From NCBI RefSeq assembly GCF_054482525.1, contig NZ_CM137006.1: 64,000 nt of DNA; one strand, given 5' to 3'. The number at the start of each line of letters is the position of its first letter. The stretch's first letter is position 1. The translations under genes and the position numbers were made by a program. Positions 12,040-44,732 of the stretch are shown here, piece after piece. The notes below the pieces were generated by a model. The model saw nothing but the letters and a program-made list of their open reading frames with translations. It was not told the origin of the DNA and made no database searches.

Positions 12040-14181
12040 TCAAAATTCCATTTTCACCGTGAATTGCACTTCACGCGGATCGCCAATCTGATTCCCCAGA
12101 TTATTTGTGGCGATGGAAGAGGTGTAATACGTTTTATCAAACAGGTTTTTGACGTTTAATTGCAGTGTGACCGGATACTGCAATTTCATTTTGTATGCAG
12201 CGAAGGCATCGGCAACGAAATAGCCTGGCAGATAATAGTCAGCCCCATTGGTTGCCGAACGACGGCTTACGCCATGTCCACCACCGCCAAACGTCAGTGT
12301 GTTATTGCCAGGCATGTTATGAATGTCATAAGTCAGGAATAGCGAACCGGTATGACGAGGAACATTCGGCAATGGTTTCCCTGCATAATCAGGATCCTCC
12401 AGAACCTTAGCATCGGTATAGCCGTAGCTGGCAATGATATTAATGTTTTCAGTTAATGCTCCCGCAAGGTCGACTTCTACCCCTCTTGAACGAACACGGC
12501 CTGCCGTTTTGGCAATGCTTTCATCACCAATACTTTCGGTATACAACACGTTACGTTTATGGATATCAAACAGCGCAATATCTGCGGTGATACCATCGAA
12601 TAGCTCGAATTTTGCCCCGACTTCGTAAGCATTAGATGATTCCGGTGGAAGATCGCCAATGTAGCTGGCAATTGACGACTGCGGCATAAATGTTTGCGAA
12701 TAATTGGCAAATAAGGATACCGATGGCGTCAGTTTGTAGACTAACCCCAGTTTGGGCGTCCATTGTTCATCGCGGCTGTCAGTATTGACATTAAAAGGAC
12801 GGCCTTTACCCGCATACTGCGTGTAATACTGATAGCGGATCCCGGCGACGGCAATCCAGTTATCGGTCAGATAGAGCGCGTCCTGTGCATACGCTGAGTA
12901 GCTCTCCTGTTTGATCGTCTGATCACTGTCCGACGCCGAAACCGTTGTGCATTTGCTGGTATTGCCATAAACGGGGTTGTAGATATTGAAATCTTTAGCG
13001 TTTTTACAGCGAATCATATCTGTGCGCAGAAGATCATAATATTCATATGACACCCCACCCAGAATCTCATTATAGAACCCAGCAATATCAGCATTCCCTT
13101 GCAGATCCGCACGAGTAGAATGCATACGCTGGGTAGATCCCTGAGTTGCATCAACACGCCGTGTCAGCGTTCCTGTCGTTGCATCATACGCGGTAACGCG
13201 AGCCTGATTGTCGCTGTATTTATCCTGGCTGTAGCTGTAATCAAAGCGCGCTGTCCACTGGCTATTGAGATGATATTCTGCGTTGAGTTGCGCCAGATCG
13301 GACTGACCATCTGTAATATTAAACGGTTCGTCAAAACGTATTTTTCGATCAACGTTTACGGGCTGTTTCGTCGTAAGGTCGAAAATCGTTCCACGATCGA
13401 ACGGAGTTTTATAGTCCCGATGGGAATAGAGCATGGTTACTGTTGCATTATCACCAAACCAGGTGAGTGACGGGGCAATAAATGTACTGCGCTCTTTACC
13501 GAAGTTTCGCCAGTAATCTTCATCCTGCACTTCCCCCGTCAGGCGGTATGCCAGCTGAGTGCCTTCAATGGGACCTGTGATATCAAGTTGCCCAGTGCCT
13601 CCGCCAAAACTGGAGGACGTGGCTGAGACAGAACCATGGAATGTTTTTTCCGGGCGCTTGGTCACGACGTTAATCAATCCACCAGGATCGAGAATGCCAT
13701 ACAGCGTGGAGGCCGGACCTTTTAGCACTTCCACACGTTCTGTGGCGGCGTTGAAACTGCGAGGAAGTACAGTTCGCAGGCCGTTGGTCATGATGGAGCC
13801 ATCCCGGTTTGCGCCAAACCCACGGCGTACAAAAGCATCCTGAGTCCCGCCTAATGTATTGGTCTGTACCACGTTACTGACGTTATAAAGCGCCTCATCC
13901 AGCGTTGTCGCATTCTGGTTTTCCAGAACCTGATCGCTAACCGTATTGACCACCTGCGGGATATCCAGCATCGGCATATCGGTTAATGTCGCCGTAGAGG
14001 TGCTCAGAGGTTGATAACCATCGGTTGCCTCAGTTGCGGTATTTGCATCTGCTGTAACAGTGATTGTTTCGCCATCTTTGGTCGTTACAGAGTCTGTTGC
14101 ATGAATCATCGGTGCCGCAAAAAGCAGTGAAAAGAGCGCCCGACCTTTGAGTCCTGAGAATGAAGGTGTGAACATAGCCAT
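12040..14181 (-). CDS. TonB-dependent outer membrane siderophore receptor (Fit-like, FitA?)
   Basis: 713-aa ORF with signal peptide, plug region and C-terminal terminal-Phe beta-barrel; divergent from ABC importer operon. Confidence 0.85.
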   Translation of the reverse strand: MAMFTPSFSGLKGRALFSLLFAAPMIHATDSVTTKDGETITVTADANTATEATDGYQPLSTSTATLTDMPMLDIPQVVNTVSDQVLENQNATTLDEALYNVSNVVQTNTLGGTQDAFVRRGFGANRDGSIMTNGLRTVLPRSFNAATERVEVLKGPASTLYGILDPGGLINVVTKRPEKTFHGSVSATSSSFGGGTGQLDITGPIEGTQLAYRLTGEVQDEDYWRNFGKERSTFIAPSLTWFGDNATVTMLYSHRDYKTPFDRGTIFDLTTKQPVNVDRKIRFDEPFNITDGQSDLAQLNAEYHLNSQWTARFDYSYSQDKYSDNQARVTAYDATTGTLTRRVDATQGSTQRMHSTRADLQGNADIAGFYNEILGGVSYEYYDLLRTDMIRCKNAKDFNIYNPVYGNTSKCTTVSASDSDQTIKQESYSAYAQDALYLTDNWIAVAGIRYQYYTQYAGKGRPFNVNTDSRDEQWTPKLGLVYKLTPSVSLFANYSQTFMPQSSIASYIGDLPPESSNAYEVGAKFELFDGITADIALFDIHKRNVLYTESIGDESIAKTAGRVRSRGVEVDLAGALTENINIIASYGYTDAKVLEDPDYAGKPLPNVPRHTGSLFLTYDIHNMPGNNTLTFGGGGHGVSRRSATNGADYYLPGYFVADAFAAYKMKLQYPVTLQLNVKNLFDKTYYTSSIATNNLGNQIGDPREVQFTVKMEF

Positions 14182-14278
14182 TTAGTCTGTTATCCCAAAA
14201 ACTCGCGGATTGTCGCGAGTGAAAATTGTTTCTTATTGCTCACTAAGCACTATCCGTTTGTTATTTCACCATCGGATA

Positions 14279-14302
14279 TGTAATTGAGAATCATTCAATC
14301 AT
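14279..14302. promoter_or_regulatory. Candidate Fur box in divergent promoter region
   Basis: taattgagaatcattcaatc resembles GATAATGATAATCATTATC (about 13/19 by eye); AT-rich divergent region. Confidence 0.3.
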
Positions 14303-14554
14303 GCGGTGATGTAGTAGTAAATGAGAAATAACAAAAAATTGCTACATGTGTTTTTATGAGAGGTTAATGCAATTCAATTGATGGTAATTTATTAATATTT
14401 AATGGTTTTATTTTTATCTTTAAAAATATTTCACCTGTTATTTACCTTGTTTTTGTGTGGCTTTTAACTGCTTGACTACTACATTTTGTGGCGTCAAACT
14501 CTCAAAGGAGAATGAGTTTTATTTTTGTTTGTCTTTGATTAAGTTGGCGTACAC

Positions 14555-15364
14555 GTGGCACATAACGCAAAAGGGCAGGGGCTGATCCTCGACAATGTTT
14601 CTGCCGGGTATCACAAGAAAATCATTGTTGATGGTGTTTCTTTCTCCGTTCCCACAGAAAAAATGACCGTTCTGGTTGGGGCAAACGGCTGTGGAAAGTC
14701 GACGTTGCTCAGCACCATTGCACGTATCTTGCAACCCATGGGCGGTTCGATATTGCTGGATGGTAAAGCGATTCACGAGCAACCAACGAAAGCGTTATCC
14801 CGTAGACTTGGGATCTTGCCGCAGTCGCCATTATTGCCGGAGGGCTTAACCGTTTATGAACTGGTGTCGCGTGGGCGTTTTCCCTGGCAGAATTTCATTC
14901 GTCAATGGAGCGACGCCGATGAGCTGGCGGTAGAAGAGGCCCTGAAATTAACGGGTACGCAGGAGTTTGCACATTTACCTGTTGAAAAACTCTCTGGTGG
15001 GCAGCGCCAGCGTTGCTGGATTGCGATGGTGTTGGCGCAAAAGACGCCTTATATCCTGCTGGATGAACCCACAACCTGGCTTGATTTACGTTATCAGGTT
15101 GAAATTCTTGAGTTATTACATGATTTAACACGTCATCACGGGCGTACAGTCGTCGTGGTGTTGCATGATCTGAATTTTGCCGTCAATTATGGCGATACGT
15201 TGATATTTTTACGCCAGGGGAAAGTGGTGCGTGTGTTGAATGAGGGGGAGCATTGCACGCCTGAGCTGGTAAAAGCGGTCTTTGACGTTGATGTTCACGC
15301 ATCAATAAATCCTCTGACGGGAAAGCCGTTCTTCATGCCGTTTCGTGGTGTAGAAAAAGTATGA
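14555..15364 (+). CDS. Iron-siderophore ABC transporter ATP-binding protein (FhuC/FecE-like)
   Basis: 269-aa ORF with Walker A GANGCGKST and LSGGQRQR signature; GTG start forced by in-frame stop at 14540. Confidence 0.85.
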   Translation: MAHNAKGQGLILDNVSAGYHKKIIVDGVSFSVPTEKMTVLVGANGCGKSTLLSTIARILQPMGGSILLDGKAIHEQPTKALSRRLGILPQSPLLPEGLTVYELVSRGRFPWQNFIRQWSDADELAVEEALKLTGTQEFAHLPVEKLSGGQRQRCWIAMVLAQKTPYILLDEPTTWLDLRYQVEILELLHDLTRHHGRTVVVVLHDLNFAVNYGDTLIFLRQGKVVRVLNEGEHCTPELVKAVFDVDVHASINPLTGKPFFMPFRGVEKV

Positions 15365-16344
15365 TGCGCACAGGGCTGGTTACTGTAATTTTCCTCGCCT
15401 TACTGCTGGTGGGATGCGTGGTATATCCAGGGATTGGTGCCCGATTTATTGCACCACAAACGGTATTGCAGGCATTTCTTCATTTTGAACCGCAAAACTT
15501 CGATCACAACGTAATTGTAAGACTCCGTTTGCCGCGTTTAGCGGCAGCATTGCTTACCGGTGCTTCTCTTGGAGTTGCTGGTGCTTTGTTGCAGGCTGTC
15601 ATTCGTAACCCATTGGGGGAGCCACATATTTTAGGCTTAAATGCCGGAGCCGCTCTTGCTGTCGTTGCTGCCAGTGCGCTTGGGCTGGCCTTTCCGGTTG
15701 GACGCCCACTGCTGGCATCTACGGGCGGCGCGTTATTGTTCCTGTTGATATTGCTGCTTTCCTCCGCAGGGCGTTCAGGGTTAACGCCAATGAAAGTTAC
15801 TTTATGCGGCGTGGCGCTATCGGCGTTCGTGTCCTCAATAACGGCTGCAATCCTGATTCTTGACGAACAAACACTGCTGGCGATGCGGACATGGCTAGCA
15901 GGTGATTTAGCGGGGCAGGATTGGGCGACGCTGGGTACGTCCGCCTGGTTTTCTCTGGGGGGATTTGTGTTAGCCCTTTACCTTGCACCCTCCCTTAACA
16001 TGTTGGCACTGGGCGATCGCATGGCGCAGGGGCTGGGCGTCTCTGTACTCCGCACGCGAACATTCACCCTGCTTGCGATCGCGTTGCTCTGTGGCGCAGC
16101 CGTATCGATTGCTGGCCCCATTGGTTTTGTCGGCCTGCTAGTACCGCAGATTGTCCGGCGTCTGGTATCAGCGGATCTGCGCGTTCTGCTCCCTCTTTCA
16201 GCTTGTGTCGGCGCACTTTTGTTATTACTGGCAGATATTATTGCCCGTACGCTTTTCACGCCCCATGAATTAGCGACCGGTGTCATGACGGCGTTAGTTG
16301 GTGCGCCTGTTTTTGTCATTATGGCGACGAGGATGTTCAAATGA
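15361..16344 (+). CDS. FecCD-family ABC permease
   Basis: 327-aa hydrophobic ORF, 4-nt overlap with upstream ATPase gene. Confidence 0.85.
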   Translation: MMRTGLVTVIFLALLLVGCVVYPGIGARFIAPQTVLQAFLHFEPQNFDHNVIVRLRLPRLAAALLTGASLGVAGALLQAVIRNPLGEPHILGLNAGAALAVVAASALGLAFPVGRPLLASTGGALLFLLILLLSSAGRSGLTPMKVTLCGVALSAFVSSITAAILILDEQTLLAMRTWLAGDLAGQDWATLGTSAWFSLGGFVLALYLAPSLNMLALGDRMAQGLGVSVLRTRTFTLLAIALLCGAAVSIAGPIGFVGLLVPQIVRRLVSADLRVLLPLSACVGALLLLLADIIARTLFTPHELATGVMTALVGAPVFVIMATRMFK

Positions 16345-17390
16345 GTCGGATAATGAACGTCGGGCTACGCCCACTACGTGTTGGTAAGTTTTCGACACTG
16401 GTACGCCCTAAAAATCTGCTGTTGCTTGGTGGGCTGTTTCTGTTTGCGGTTGGAATACTGATATTCGGTCTGATGCAGGGTTCTTTCTCTGTTCCGGCAT
16501 CGGAAGTAGGACGAGCGTTGTTTGCTCCAGAAAACGTAAGCACAGACGCACGTTATATTGTGCAGGATATTCGCTTGCCGAGAGTCATCATGGCATTGCT
16601 ATGCGGGGCCATGTTAGGTATGGCAGGGGCCGCAATGCAATCCATTGCACGTAACGGCCTTGCCGATCCTGGGTTAATCGGCGTCAAAGAAGGATGTAGC
16701 GTGGCTGTGCTGTGGCTGATTTTCCAGTTTCCAATGCTGGGAGTGTTCTGGCGTCCAGTGGCTGGTCTTGCTGGTGGCCTGTTGGTGGCTTTAATCGTGA
16801 TTTTTTGTGCGCGCGATATTTCCCGCCCGCGATTTGTTCTGATTGGTATTGGTGTTTCCTGGTTTTTCGCCGCCGGTATCGGTGTATTTATGACCACTGC
16901 AGATGTTCGAGATGTACAAACTGCATTGATGTGGTTATCGGGAAGCCTGCATGCAGCTAACTGGATGTTAGTCGGTATTTCAGCCTGTTGGATGTTGCCA
17001 GCCGCTCTTTTATTGCTGTTCACCGCCAGGACGGCGGATATCGCTCTGCTTGGTCATCAGGTTGCAACCGGGTTAGGGGTGAATAGTTCTCGTCTGGCGT
17101 TGTTACGTGTCGCCGCACCCATAATCCTGACAGCCGTCTGCGTTTCGTGTGTTGGTAACATCGGTTTTGTCGGATTGATAGCACCCCATATATCACGTTT
17201 TATGCTACGTGGCGGGCAGACGACATTACTGCTGGGGAGCGCGGTATCGGGGGCGTTGTTAGTTATTCTGGCGGATAGCATTGGTCGTTTGGCTTTTTTG
17301 CCTTTGCAACTGCCTGCCGGAATCATTATCTCACTGATTGGTGGACCATTTTTTTTGCTACTGCTCTGGCAGCGCAGGAACAGTTTTTAA
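16341..17390 (+). CDS. FecCD-family ABC permease (second)
   Basis: 349-aa hydrophobic ORF, overlaps previous permease stop. Confidence 0.85.
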   Translation: MSRIMNVGLRPLRVGKFSTLVRPKNLLLLGGLFLFAVGILIFGLMQGSFSVPASEVGRALFAPENVSTDARYIVQDIRLPRVIMALLCGAMLGMAGAAMQSIARNGLADPGLIGVKEGCSVAVLWLIFQFPMLGVFWRPVAGLAGGLLVALIVIFCARDISRPRFVLIGIGVSWFFAAGIGVFMTTADVRDVQTALMWLSGSLHAANWMLVGISACWMLPAALLLLFTARTADIALLGHQVATGLGVNSSRLALLRVAAPIILTAVCVSCVGNIGFVGLIAPHISRFMLRGGQTTLLLGSAVSGALLVILADSIGRLAFLPLQLPAGIIISLIGGPFFLLLLWQRRNSF

Positions 17391-17400
17391 CGGGAGTTAT

Positions 17401-18348
17401 ATGCGTTTATTTTTTTCTCTGCTGATACTGTTGTCATTTTTTTCCCGTGCAACAGAACCTGTTCAGGTATTTACTGATGATTTAGGGCGCAAAGTCACTG
17501 TTCCTGCTCATCCAAAGAGAATTGTCTCTTTACACGATCTTGATATCACTATTCCTCTGATTGAGCTCGGTGTACCTCCTGTCGCCAGCCACGGGCGAAC
17601 TCGGCCTGACGGTAGCCATTTCATTCGATCTGGCGCGTTATTGACAGGTGTCGACTTTGATAATTCATCGATCGCCTTTATTGGTACCGCTGATATTGAT
17701 ATTGAAGCGATTGTGGCGGCAAAGCCTGACTTGATCATCACAGAACCGACCCGTAATACGCCCATTGAACAACTTGAAAAAATTGCGCCCACGGTGAGCA
17801 TTGATCATCTCAAAGGGGGCGCGCCAGAAATCTATCGCAAGCTGGCAGAACTTACAGGAACGCAGTCGCAGCTGGCGATACTTGAACGCCGCTATCAGGC
17901 ACAAATCAATGCGCTGAAGGCGACGCTGGACAGCCAAAAAATAACGGTATCGGTGATTCAGGCAAACCAGGGAAAAATTAATGTGATGCATAGCTATCAT
18001 TCGCTGGGGCGGGTATTACGCGATGCTGGTTTTCGTTTTCCGCCGCTGATTGAGAGCATTCCTGAAGGTGGGCGAATGGATGTGAGCGCGGAGCGTTTAC
18101 CTGAACTGGATGCCGATTTTGTTTTTGCAACCTGGCGCGGTGACACCGGTGGTAAACCTCAGGATGAGCTGGCAGCAATGGAAAAAGTCATGCCGGGATG
18201 GTGTCAGTTTCTGACTGCCTGTCGTTCCGGGCGTTATGTGCTGATTTCTCGTGAAGAGGCAATTTCTAACTCCTTTGCATCACTGGGGCTGATGGCTGCG
18301 CAGATACAATCACAAATTGCAGGGCGACCTCTACCGGAGGCTAAATGA
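17401..18348 (+). CDS. Periplasmic siderophore-binding protein (cluster A SBP)
   Basis: ORF track 17338..18348; start trimmed to MRLFFSLLILLSFFSRA signal peptide preceded by GGGAG. Confidence 0.8.
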   Translation: MRLFFSLLILLSFFSRATEPVQVFTDDLGRKVTVPAHPKRIVSLHDLDITIPLIELGVPPVASHGRTRPDGSHFIRSGALLTGVDFDNSSIAFIGTADIDIEAIVAAKPDLIITEPTRNTPIEQLEKIAPTVSIDHLKGGAPEIYRKLAELTGTQSQLAILERRYQAQINALKATLDSQKITVSVIQANQGKINVMHSYHSLGRVLRDAGFRFPPLIESIPEGGRMDVSAERLPELDADFVFATWRGDTGGKPQDELAAMEKVMPGWCQFLTACRSGRYVLISREEAISNSFASLGLMAAQIQSQIAGRPLPEAK

Positions 18349-19232
18349 TCCAGAAAGATAAAGCGCGGGTTGATATTTTTGGTGAGCGTTTTCGCACTCG
18401 CGCGAGTCAGTTAACGCCTGGGTTAAGAGCTGTCGCCAGCTACATTAATGAGCATCGTGAAGTGGTACTCGAGCAAACGGCGATGGAAATTGCGGCCACG
18501 TTGAACACTTCCGATGCCACAGTTATCAGGGCTATACAGGCCCTGGGGTTTGCCGGGCTGCGTGATCTGAAACGCACTCTGGAACAGTGGCTTGGTCCAG
18601 CCCTTAGTTCCAGCGAAAAGATGTCTACGACGGTGAGTAACTTGACGAGCGATGTTAACACCGCAATCGACTTTGTTCTTGAAGGGCATTTGTATACCTG
18701 TAATGTCCTGTCAGAGCCTGAAAACCGCCACGCGCTTGCGCAAGCTGTAGCGTTGTTGGTGCAGGCACGGCAAGTCGCAATTTTTGGCATTGGCGCTTCG
18801 GGTATTCTGGCGGACTATACCGCACGACTATTCAACCGCATAGGTTTGCCTGCCACGGCACTAAACCGTACGGGGATTGGCCTTGCCGAGCAACTGATCG
18901 CGCTTCAACGTGGCGATGTTCTGATCATGATGGCGCAAAAATCTGCGCACCGGGAAGGGCTGACAACGCTTCGTGAGGCGAGGCGGCTGGGGATCCCTGT
19001 TATTTTGCTGACAAACGCGCTGGATTCGCGTTTTAGCAAAGACGCCAGTATCGTGATTCATGTTCCGCGCGGGGATGAAAAAGGGAAAACGCCGCTACAT
19101 GGTACGGTATTGTTGTGTCTGGAAATGATTGTCTGGTCGGTAGCTTCCGCAGTGCCGCAGCGTGCGGTTAAAACCATTAAGCGAATTAACGATTTCCATC
19201 GAGGACTGAAAACGGGAAGAAAGAATGGCTAA
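18345..19232 (+). CDS. RpiR/MurR-family transcriptional regulator (HTH + SIS domain)
   Basis: 295-aa ORF; N-terminal HTH, C-terminal SIS-like phosphosugar-binding region; start overlaps binding-protein stop (ATGA). Confidence 0.75.
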   Translation: MIQKDKARVDIFGERFRTRASQLTPGLRAVASYINEHREVVLEQTAMEIAATLNTSDATVIRAIQALGFAGLRDLKRTLEQWLGPALSSSEKMSTTVSNLTSDVNTAIDFVLEGHLYTCNVLSEPENRHALAQAVALLVQARQVAIFGIGASGILADYTARLFNRIGLPATALNRTGIGLAEQLIALQRGDVLIMMAQKSAHREGLTTLREARRLGIPVILLTNALDSRFSKDASIVIHVPRGDEKGKTPLHGTVLLCLEMIVWSVASAVPQRAVKTIKRINDFHRGLKTGRKNG

Positions 19233-27580: not shown

Positions 27581-27742
27581 AGCGTATTCAACCCCCGGAA
27601 ACGATAAAAATTCCCTTGAAACCGTTGTTTATTCATGCGTTGCGATTAACAATACGCTTTTCCAGAGAGCTGCTTTTAACAATGCCCTAACCTGATTTCA
27701 GGTGACGTACAATGCCAGTCTCTCAGACCTTCAGAGGGTGTT

Positions 27743-29967: not shown

Positions 29968-30077
29968 TCTTCATACTCGCCCGAGGAGGGCGAGTATGGA
30001 ATACCTTTCGATTTCTCTTTCGTTCCGGCTTATAATCCCCGGCCTTTGATTATTTTTTTATCATTTCTGGAAGCAAA

Positions 30078-32339: not shown

Positions 32340-32597
32340 TCATTCTGCGTACATACGCAAGCAGCGCAGGCAATCAAAATAGTCCTGAGCATCAAGACGC
32401 GTATTGGCTCTGTTAGCTTCGGATTTGGCAGCATAGATTTGTGGGCGTAGTGCTTTCATATCCTGCTCAAGCCGGGCGATTTTGGCATTTAATGTTTGCA
32501 CATTGCTCGCCAGCTGATTGACCTTTTGCTCATTGACGCAGCCACTGAGCAAGCAGGTTGCCAGAACAACAGCTCCCACGGTGAAAATCGTTTTCAT
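32340..32597 (-). CDS. yqhH: Lpp-like outer membrane lipoprotein YqhH
   Basis: 85-aa ORF, lipobox LSGC, coiled-coil. Confidence 0.85.
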
Positions 32598-32647
32598 ATA
32601 GTGTTCCCTTTTATTTATTGTTCCGGCTAATTGTTATTTAATTCAGC

Positions 32648-38988: not shown

Positions 38989-39239
38989 GTCGGGATTCCT
39001 GTTTTTATACGTCTGGATGTCTAAACTAGCATGAATATTCGCGGGCGCATCCTGAAGAATTGGCATAAAGCAGAAAATTTTCGCAAATGGCGTGCTGGTG
39101 ACTTTTTTACTGCGTAAACGCAAGGAAAAGAAAGCAAAGGTACGGCAGTATGCAAATAGTAATGAGAACGACTATCAATTCGACGTCGTTTTGATATTAT
39201 TATGCGCAGATTTTGTGACTTGCGTCCTGGAGATACACA

Positions 39240-39974
39240 GTGGGTAATAATTTAATGCAGACGGACCTTTCCGTCTGGGGTATGTATCAGCACGCCGATA
39301 TTGTCGTTAAGTGCGTGATGATTGGGCTTATTTTGGCCTCCGTAGTCACCTGGGCAATCTTCTTCAGTAAGAGCGTAGAGTTCTTCAATCAGAAGCGTCG
39401 CCTTAAGCGCGAGCAGCAACTGCTGGCTGAAGCGCGTTCCTTAAACCAGGCCAACGATATCGCCGCTGATTTTGGTAGCAAAAGCTTAAGCCTGCATTTG
39501 CTCAATGAAGCGCAGAATGAGCTGGAACTGTCAGAAGGCAGCGACGATAACGAAGGTATTAAAGAACGTACCAGCTTCCGTCTGGAGCGTCGGGTCGCCG
39601 CAGTAGGTCGTCAAATGGGCCGCGGTAACGGCTATCTGGCAACCATCGGCGCGATTTCGCCGTTCGTTGGTCTGTTTGGTACGGTCTGGGGCATCATGAA
39701 CAGCTTTATTGGTATCGCGCAAACGCAGACCACTAACCTGGCAGTCGTTGCGCCGGGTATCGCAGAAGCTCTGTTAGCAACGGCAATCGGCCTCGTGGCA
39801 GCGATTCCGGCGGTCGTTATCTATAACGTATTTGCACGCCAGATTGGCGGCTTTAAAGCGATGCTGGGTGATGTTGCAGCGCAGGTATTGTTGCTGCAAA
39901 GCCGTGACCTGGATCTGGAAGCCAGCGCCGCTGCGCATCCGGTTCGTGTCGCACAAAAATTACGCGCAGGATAA
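39240..39974 (+). CDS. exbB: TonB-system energiser ExbB
   Basis: 244-aa ORF recognised. Confidence 0.95.
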   Translation: MGNNLMQTDLSVWGMYQHADIVVKCVMIGLILASVVTWAIFFSKSVEFFNQKRRLKREQQLLAEARSLNQANDIAADFGSKSLSLHLLNEAQNELELSEGSDDNEGIKERTSFRLERRVAAVGRQMGRGNGYLATIGAISPFVGLFGTVWGIMNSFIGIAQTQTTNLAVVAPGIAEALLATAIGLVAAIPAVVIYNVFARQIGGFKAMLGDVAAQVLLLQSRDLDLEASAAAHPVRVAQKLRAG

Positions 39975-39980
39975 TGTCCG

Positions 39981-40406
39981 ATGGCAATGCATCTTAACGA
40001 AAACCTCGACGATAATGGCGAAATGCATGATATCAACGTGACGCCGTTTATCGACGTGATGTTGGTTCTGCTGATTATCTTTATGGTGGCGGCACCGTTA
40101 GCGACGGTAGATGTGAAGGTGAACTTGCCTGCTTCTACCAGCACGCCGCAGCCGCGCCCGGAAAAACCGGTTTATCTGTCGGTGAAGGCGGACAACTCGA
40201 TGTTTATCGGTAACGATCCGGTCACCGATGAAACAATGGTTACGGCGCTGAATGCGTTAACTGAAGGTAAGAAAGACACCACCATCTTCTTCCGTGCGGA
40301 TAAAACCGTCGATTACGAGACGTTGATGAAGGTAATGGATACGCTGCATCAGGCGGGTTATCTGAAGATAGGTCTGGTCGGCGAAGAAACCGCCAAAGCG
40401 AAATAA
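39981..40406 (+). CDS. exbD: TonB-system energiser ExbD
   Basis: 141-aa ORF recognised. Confidence 0.95.
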   Translation: MAMHLNENLDDNGEMHDINVTPFIDVMLVLLIIFMVAAPLATVDVKVNLPASTSTPQPRPEKPVYLSVKADNSMFIGNDPVTDETMVTALNALTEGKKDTTIFFRADKTVDYETLMKVMDTLHQAGYLKIGLVGEETAKAK

Positions 40407-44544: not shown

Positions 44545-44732
44545 TCAAACATACGTATTATCTTGCTTTAATTAATTACACTAATGCTTCTTCCCTTCGT
44601 TTTAGTGCCCCGCCGCAGTATCATGATATCGATAACCATAATAAATGTGTGGTAAATGGCGCATCGATCGCATTATTGATTTTGCGATTGAGGCAAAATA
44701 TATGCCAGGTCTTCGCAACGGAATAACTATAA

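Follow-up and report, generated by a model that had tools for sequence, protein, structure and literature searches.

A probable Fur operator in front of fitA, one of two Fur boxes in the divergent promoter region of the Escherichia coli fit iron-uptake island

In Escherichia coli K-12, the fepA-fes, fepD-entS, and fepB-entC loci share a layout in which a receptor or transport gene is divergent from an operon, with an AT-rich spacer in between and with Fur boxes that lie over the core promoter. A comparable divergent gene order with an AT-rich spacer is found in the fit system, whose regulation was described by Ouyang and Isaacson (2008; PMC2593036). In that study, fitA rose 23-fold when fur was mutated and 52-fold when fur and fitR were both mutated, iron deprivation induced lacZ fusions reading out of the spacer in either direction approximately three-fold, and purified FitR, a repressor of fit, shifted a spacer fragment of 347 bp; the precise positions bound by Fur and FitR were left for later identification. 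Further, Fur ChIP-exo was performed in nine strains (Gao et al., NAR 2023; PMC10164565), resulting in fit peaks and fit regulon entries in three of them, namely Sakai, 042, and CFT073. In these three strains, the peaks in the fit spacer occurred under iron-replete conditions only (Dataset 2), separate peaks were assigned to each fit transcription unit, all fit genes were members of the Fur regulon (Dataset 4), and the log2 fold change of fitA upon deletion of fur amounted to 8.1 (042), 3.5 (Sakai), and 3.9 (CFT073). Dataset 2 gives 13-bp positions and gene assignments only, with no discussion of fit, of a motif instance, or of a promoter. Fur control of fit and Fur occupancy of its spacer are thus already known (2008, 2023), and the present analysis assigns bases to a regulation earlier shown for the whole spacer (2008) or for 13-bp ChIP-exo marks (2023). 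Little new biology is involved, as Fur control of siderophore-uptake loci is a textbook expectation and fit belongs to the published Fur regulon. The additions are modest and consist of a map of two boxes and two promoters, an assignment at base level, the invariance across genera, and a candidate FitR operator.

The DNA analysed (64,000 nucleotides, hereafter called the window) is part of an E. coli chromosome, and the island between parE and ygiN is the fit iron-uptake island. This was indicated by the open reading frames and their family matches, the RefSeq annotation of an identical locus, and the gene names in strain Sakai (O157:H7), whose annotation names fitA, fitC, fitD, fitE, and fitR. 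Indeed, the locus is the one studied by Ouyang and Isaacson, with which it agrees in gene order, in its site between parE and ygiN, and in the length of its spacer (373 bp), and no biological difference was found. The genes and their spacer are as follows:

12040..14181, minus strand: fitA, encoding a TonB-dependent siderophore receptor of 713 amino acids (TIGR01783 match of 369 bits; named fitA in Sakai)
14182-14554: fitA/fitB spacer of 373 bp with 31% G+C, bounded by the start codons of fitA (14181, minus strand) and fitB (GTG, 14555)
14555..19232, plus strand: fitB-fitC-fitD-fitE-fitR operon (open reading frames, family matches, and RefSeq/Sakai annotation)
14555-15364, plus strand: fitB, encoding an ABC ATPase with a GTG start, the first gene of the operon, followed in order by the genes for two permeases, a binding protein, and an RpiR-family regulator

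The fit locus was present in 1870 of the 5426 complete E. coli genomes, and only two of these 1870 carried an allele with at least 99% identity over 1 kb to that of the window, which therefore represents a minor variant. The fit spacer of strain GF131 is 100% identical to that of the window. A 7.7-kb island that GF131 carries between ygiQ and ftsP, with a TRAP transporter, dehydrogenases, and a GntR-type regulator, is absent from the window (approximately 29968-30028), as are 233 bp that Sakai has between yghA and exbD.

A preliminary description of this DNA, made from the letters alone, had flagged the interval 14279-14302 as a candidate Fur operator, based on a partial match to the Fur consensus in the AT-rich spacer. 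The match is present (31% G+C in the 373-bp spacer). The flagged sequence taattgagaatcattcaatc occurs at positions 14281-14300, and the best 19-bp alignment, GTAATTGAGAATCATTCAA at 14280-14298 (Fur box 1), matches the Fur consensus GATAATGATAATCATTATC at 12 of 19 positions. Similarly, its core TGAGAATCATTCAAT shares 10 of the 13 positions specified in the ChIP-exo consensus TGAnAATnATTcTCA. In the right half-site of box 1, only three of seven consensus positions are matched. For scoring, a 19-bp matrix was built by consensus-seeded iteration on 16 Fur-regulated promoters of E. coli K-12 MG1655 (fepA-fes, fepD-entS, fepB-entC, fhuA, fhuE, fhuF, cirA, fiu, tonB, fecI, fecA, feoA, fur, sodA, ryhB, and sufA), which recovered the classical consensus. 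The following Fur boxes were retrieved in the window, those of exbB and hybO serving as internal positive controls:

14280..14298, plus strand: Fur box 1, GTAATTGAGAATCATTCAA, proximal to fitA (matrix score of 10.6 bits, ChIP-exo overlap, cross-genus conservation)
14508..14526, minus strand: Fur box 2, AAAAATAAAACTCATTCTC on the minus strand, corresponding to gagaatgagttttattttt on the plus strand, proximal to fitB (12.0 bits, rank 5)
39158-39176: Fur box of the exbB promoter, 64 bp upstream of the exbB start at 39240 (12.4 bits, rank 3, published ChIP-exo peak)
44625-44643: Fur box upstream of hybO (13.2 bits, rank 2 in the window, published ChIP-exo peak)

With 10.6 bits, box 1 ranked sixth among approximately 128,000 strand-positions in the window. 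This score is modest, being in the lower quartile of the leave-one-out scores of the 16 training promoters (median 14.7 bits), yet it falls within the range of genuine sites (6.7-20.2 bits), in which box 2 likewise counts as weak. Hits of at least 10.6 bits numbered six in the whole window versus 1.8 expected for matched composition, and 0.049 would be expected in a spacer of the same composition, so that box 1 scores above background. When the spacer was shuffled 5000 times with dinucleotides preserved, a maximum of at least 10.6 bits was reached with a probability of 0.06, and two such sites with a probability of 0.002. Four of the six hits, namely the two fit sites, exbB, and hybO, are located within regions of published Fur ChIP-exo peaks. 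The two other hits were found at 32583-32601 (13.2 bits, at the start of yqhH) and at 27597-27615 (12.4 bits, upstream of plsC). No ChIP-exo peaks assigned to yqhH or plsC were seen in the Sakai list, and these two hits are therefore probably false positives. Weaker Fur-like stretches in the spacer (14317-14335, 14363-14381, and 14221-14239) reached only approximately 5-6 bits and were discarded; the one stretch among them whose conservation was checked (14317-14335) is poorly conserved across genera downstream of 14323. Taken alone, the sequence match of box 1 is suggestive rather than decisive.

Occupancy in vivo was addressed by re-mapping the published ChIP-exo data, the peak positions being converted from the strain records into window coordinates. 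The Sakai coordinates refer to the older NC_002695.1 frame and needed a shift of +128 to fit the current record; with this shift, the fit peaks of Sakai line up with the peaks seen in 042 and CFT073, and the offsets of the control sites agree. The marks in the spacer are:

Strain 042: 14291-14303 on the fitA side, 14504-14516 on the fitB side, and an extra mark at 14396-14408
Strain CFT073: 14291-14303 on the fitA side and 14501-14513 on the fitB side, with no other mark in the spacer
Strain Sakai (shifted by +128): 14291-14303 on the fitA side and 14502-14514 on the fitB side, with no other mark in the spacer

The fitA-side mark (14291-14303) overlaps box 1 and the fitB-side marks (14501-14516) overlap box 2, so the fit peaks of Gao et al. 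(2023) map onto both boxes. The distance between peak centre and motif centre was 7-10 bp for the fit boxes; for two established boxes nearby, taken from the same data as controls, it was 17-25 bp (exbB) and 7-13 bp (yqjH/nfeF); these marks are curated positions of 13 bp, which may lie up to approximately 25 bp from the motif. Besides the marks on the two boxes, an intragenic Fur ChIP-exo peak occurs in fitA (approximately 12686-12699), at the same place in Sakai, 042, and CFT073, where the sequence is a weak Fur match (5.3 bits at best). Extra marks occurring in one strain each were found at 14396-14408 (042, mid-spacer) and at 13679-13691 (Sakai, inside fitA), and neither of these two positions carries Fur-like sequence (matrix score below 1 bit).

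Conservation was assessed by scanning one genome per species with FitA, which yielded 39 loci (FitA identity of 71-99%) from Escherichia, Enterobacter, Lelliottia, Silvania, Huaxiibacter, Citrobacter, Kosakonia, Kluyvera, Yokenella, Erwinia, Pantoea, and Affinibrenneria. The divergent fitA/fitB arrangement was retained in all 39, with spacers of 369-588 bp. The 19-mer of box 1 was unchanged in 34 of these loci, spanning Escherichia, Enterobacter, Lelliottia, Citrobacter, Kosakonia, Kluyvera, Yokenella, Erwinia, and Pantoea, and had one to three changes in the other loci. Expressed as column identity to the window (40 sequences), box 1 reached 0.99 and box 2 0.94, versus 0.59 for the whole spacer and 0.43 for positions 14330-14470. 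All 1870 fit-positive complete genomes of E. coli contained the 32-bp block that surrounds box 1, and none of the 11 positions at which the Sakai spacer differs from that of the window falls within either Fur box. An ATTGA-N7-TCAAT dyad was also considered as the conserved feature and was rejected, its last base (14299) being the sole variable column of the block.

Fur occupancy in vivo and conservation across genera together make the call of box 1 decisive. They also exclude a chance match: an AT-rich spacer such as this one does yield a hit of at least 10.6 bits approximately 5-6% of the time, but a functionless resemblance would have to be reconciled with a 19-mer that is identical across at least nine genera while the flanking spacer has diverged, and with Fur present at the site in vivo in three strains, so that its probability is negligible. 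In view of the sequence match, the published occupancy in vivo, the published Fur and iron dependence, and the deep conservation, positions 14280-14298 are very probably a genuine operator through which Fur controls the fit island of E. coli and would occlude the fitA promoter (PfitA), with box 2 doing the same for the promoter of fitBCDE-fitR (PfitB) and FitR providing a second layer. The candidate operator of the preliminary description has thereby gained the support of a matrix score, published genetics, ChIP-exo in three strains, and cross-genus invariance, and a dependence of transcription on Fur and iron is on record in the published fur-mutant and iron-deprivation data (PMC2593036; PMC10164565). 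The case confirms that a true Fur operator can be recognised by reading the letters alone, starting from an incomplete match to the consensus.

As to the promoters, a strict sigma-70 scan of 14100-14650 found none, and no transcription start for fitA or fitB is among the starts listed in the EDL933 Cappable-seq tables, those listed for fit being intra-operon only, at fitR and fitD. Nor do the listed starts include any with EDL933 coordinates beginning 40045 to 40050, the estimated location of the fit spacer in that genome. The hexamers were read from the conservation pattern, with four conserved blocks in the spacer, and both the hexamers and the start sites are to be taken as predictions, as are the occlusion geometry and the pairing of boxes with promoters that follow from them. 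The putative elements, together with a repeated motif, are:

14293..14301, minus strand: putative extended -10 of PfitA, TGnTTGAAT (TG at 14301-14300, N at 14299, hexamer at 14298-14293)
14316..14321, minus strand: putative -35 of PfitA, TTTACT, 17 bp upstream of the -10
14310..14318, minus strand: ACTACTACA, first copy, immediately 3' of the -35-like hexamer of PfitA
14472..14477, plus strand: putative -35 of PfitB, TTGACT, matching TTGACA at five of six positions
14475..14483, plus strand: ACTACTACA, second copy, immediately 3' of the -35-like hexamer of PfitB
14495..14500, plus strand: putative weak -10 of PfitB, CAAACT, 17 bp after the -35 and below the threshold of the strict scan

On the fitA side, the minus strand reads TTTACT-ACTACA, six variable bases, and C-R-T-G-N-TTGAAT-GATTCTCAATTACA. 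The block at 14310-14323 is 100% conserved and is separated by the variable stretch 14304-14309 from the -10 of PfitA, of which the hexamer and the TG are invariant, the only variable column in that block being the 'n' position (14299). Box 1 would hence span the -10 hexamer of PfitA and the start predicted for this promoter at about 14286. On the fitB side, TTGACT-ACTACA (14472-14483) is identical in all 40 sequences and is followed by eleven variable bases and the weak -10, which reads CATGAT, CAAAAT, or CAAGAT in orthologues, the initial CA and the final T being kept in all those inspected. The conserved GAGAATGAGTTTTATTTTT comes after this -10, which would place box 2 at roughly +1 to +20 of PfitB. 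The conservation pattern as a whole thus suggests two promoters, one per direction.

The non-consensus positions of the weak box 1 are as invariant across genera as its consensus positions, which suggests an overlapping constraint beyond Fur binding, imposed by a promoter and perhaps by FitR. The whole block could then be conserved as the fitA core promoter, as a FitR operator, or as both, with Fur bound to adjacent DNA and the resemblance to a Fur box being incidental. Such a reading would account for the equal invariance of the non-consensus bases and for the plausible TGnTTGAAT extended -10 inside the block, and it could draw on the likeness of TGTAAT (14279-14284) to the TGTAGT of the repeated motif and on the centre of the ChIP-exo mark, which lies 8 bp to one side of box 1. 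It is nevertheless quite improbable, given that the mark overlaps the 19-mer, that the 11-bp core TGAGAATCATT matches the ChIP-exo motif derived from the strains, and that nothing more Fur-like is present within 40 bp, where the runner-up scores approximately 5-6 bits and is not conserved.

The preliminary description had further placed the flagged site upstream of the GTG start of the ATPase gene. This holds in the literal sense, as box 1 is located 256 bp from the fitB GTG, but the site is proximal to the receptor gene (99 bp from the fitA ATG), and the ATPase operon has a box of its own. This second box, which did not appear in that description, is positioned 29 bp upstream of the fitB GTG, and the two boxes are 228 bp apart. 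Box 1 might still be a single operator shared by both divergent promoters, as the wording of the preliminary description (a divergent promoter, a position relative to the ATPase GTG) implies. Sharing would be in line with repression of both directions by Fur and iron (PMC2593036). Three observations speak for separate operators, namely the distance of 174 bp between box 1 and the conserved fitB-side -35 (TTGACT), the separate ChIP-exo peaks per transcription unit in three strains, and the conserved, higher-scoring second box at 14508-14526. Closely spaced or shared Fur sites do occur at other E. coli bidirectional iron promoters, such as fepA-fes and fepD-entS, and a single shared operator is here considered improbable. 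Most likely, the spacer holds two Fur operators, box 1 for the receptor gene fitA and box 2 for the ATPase operon, this pairing following from the position of each box relative to the putative promoters.

With two operators, regulation of the fit island may be envisaged as follows. When iron is plentiful, Fe2+-Fur would bind box 1, over the extended -10 and the predicted start of the leftward PfitA, thereby excluding RNA polymerase and keeping the receptor gene fitA off. Fur on box 2, which lies shortly after the -10 of the rightward PfitB, would repress the transporter operon in the same way. When iron is scarce, Fur would be released and both fit promoters would become active, with FitR acting as an independent, weaker layer of repression. 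Iron- and Fur-dependent repression of fitA would depend on the bases GAGAATCATTC of box 1.

Concerning the second layer, the motif ACTACTACA occurs in only two copies in the 64-kb window, versus 0.15 expected, in inverted orientation, and both copies are 100% conserved across genera (40 sequences). The pair is a possible, still tentative candidate for the operator of FitR, an RpiR/SIS-family repressor, in which case the -35 of each fit promoter would be overlain by a FitR site and its -10 or start by one for Fur. Such a symmetric two-repressor design would have been kept base for base in enterobacterial genera and would link iron uptake to a FitR ligand.

Compared with the siderophore loci fepA-fes, fepD-entS, and fepB-entC, the fit island has the same divergent layout, an AT-rich spacer, and a Fur box over a (putative) core promoter. 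It differs in having two well-separated boxes, 228 bp apart, and a dedicated second repressor of the RpiR type, which those loci are not known to have. At base level, fit box 1 shares the core TGAGAATCATT with the Fur box of the aerobactin gene iucA (GATAATGAGAATCATTATT), whereas its flanks (GTAATT and CAA) are much further from the consensus than those of the iucA box.
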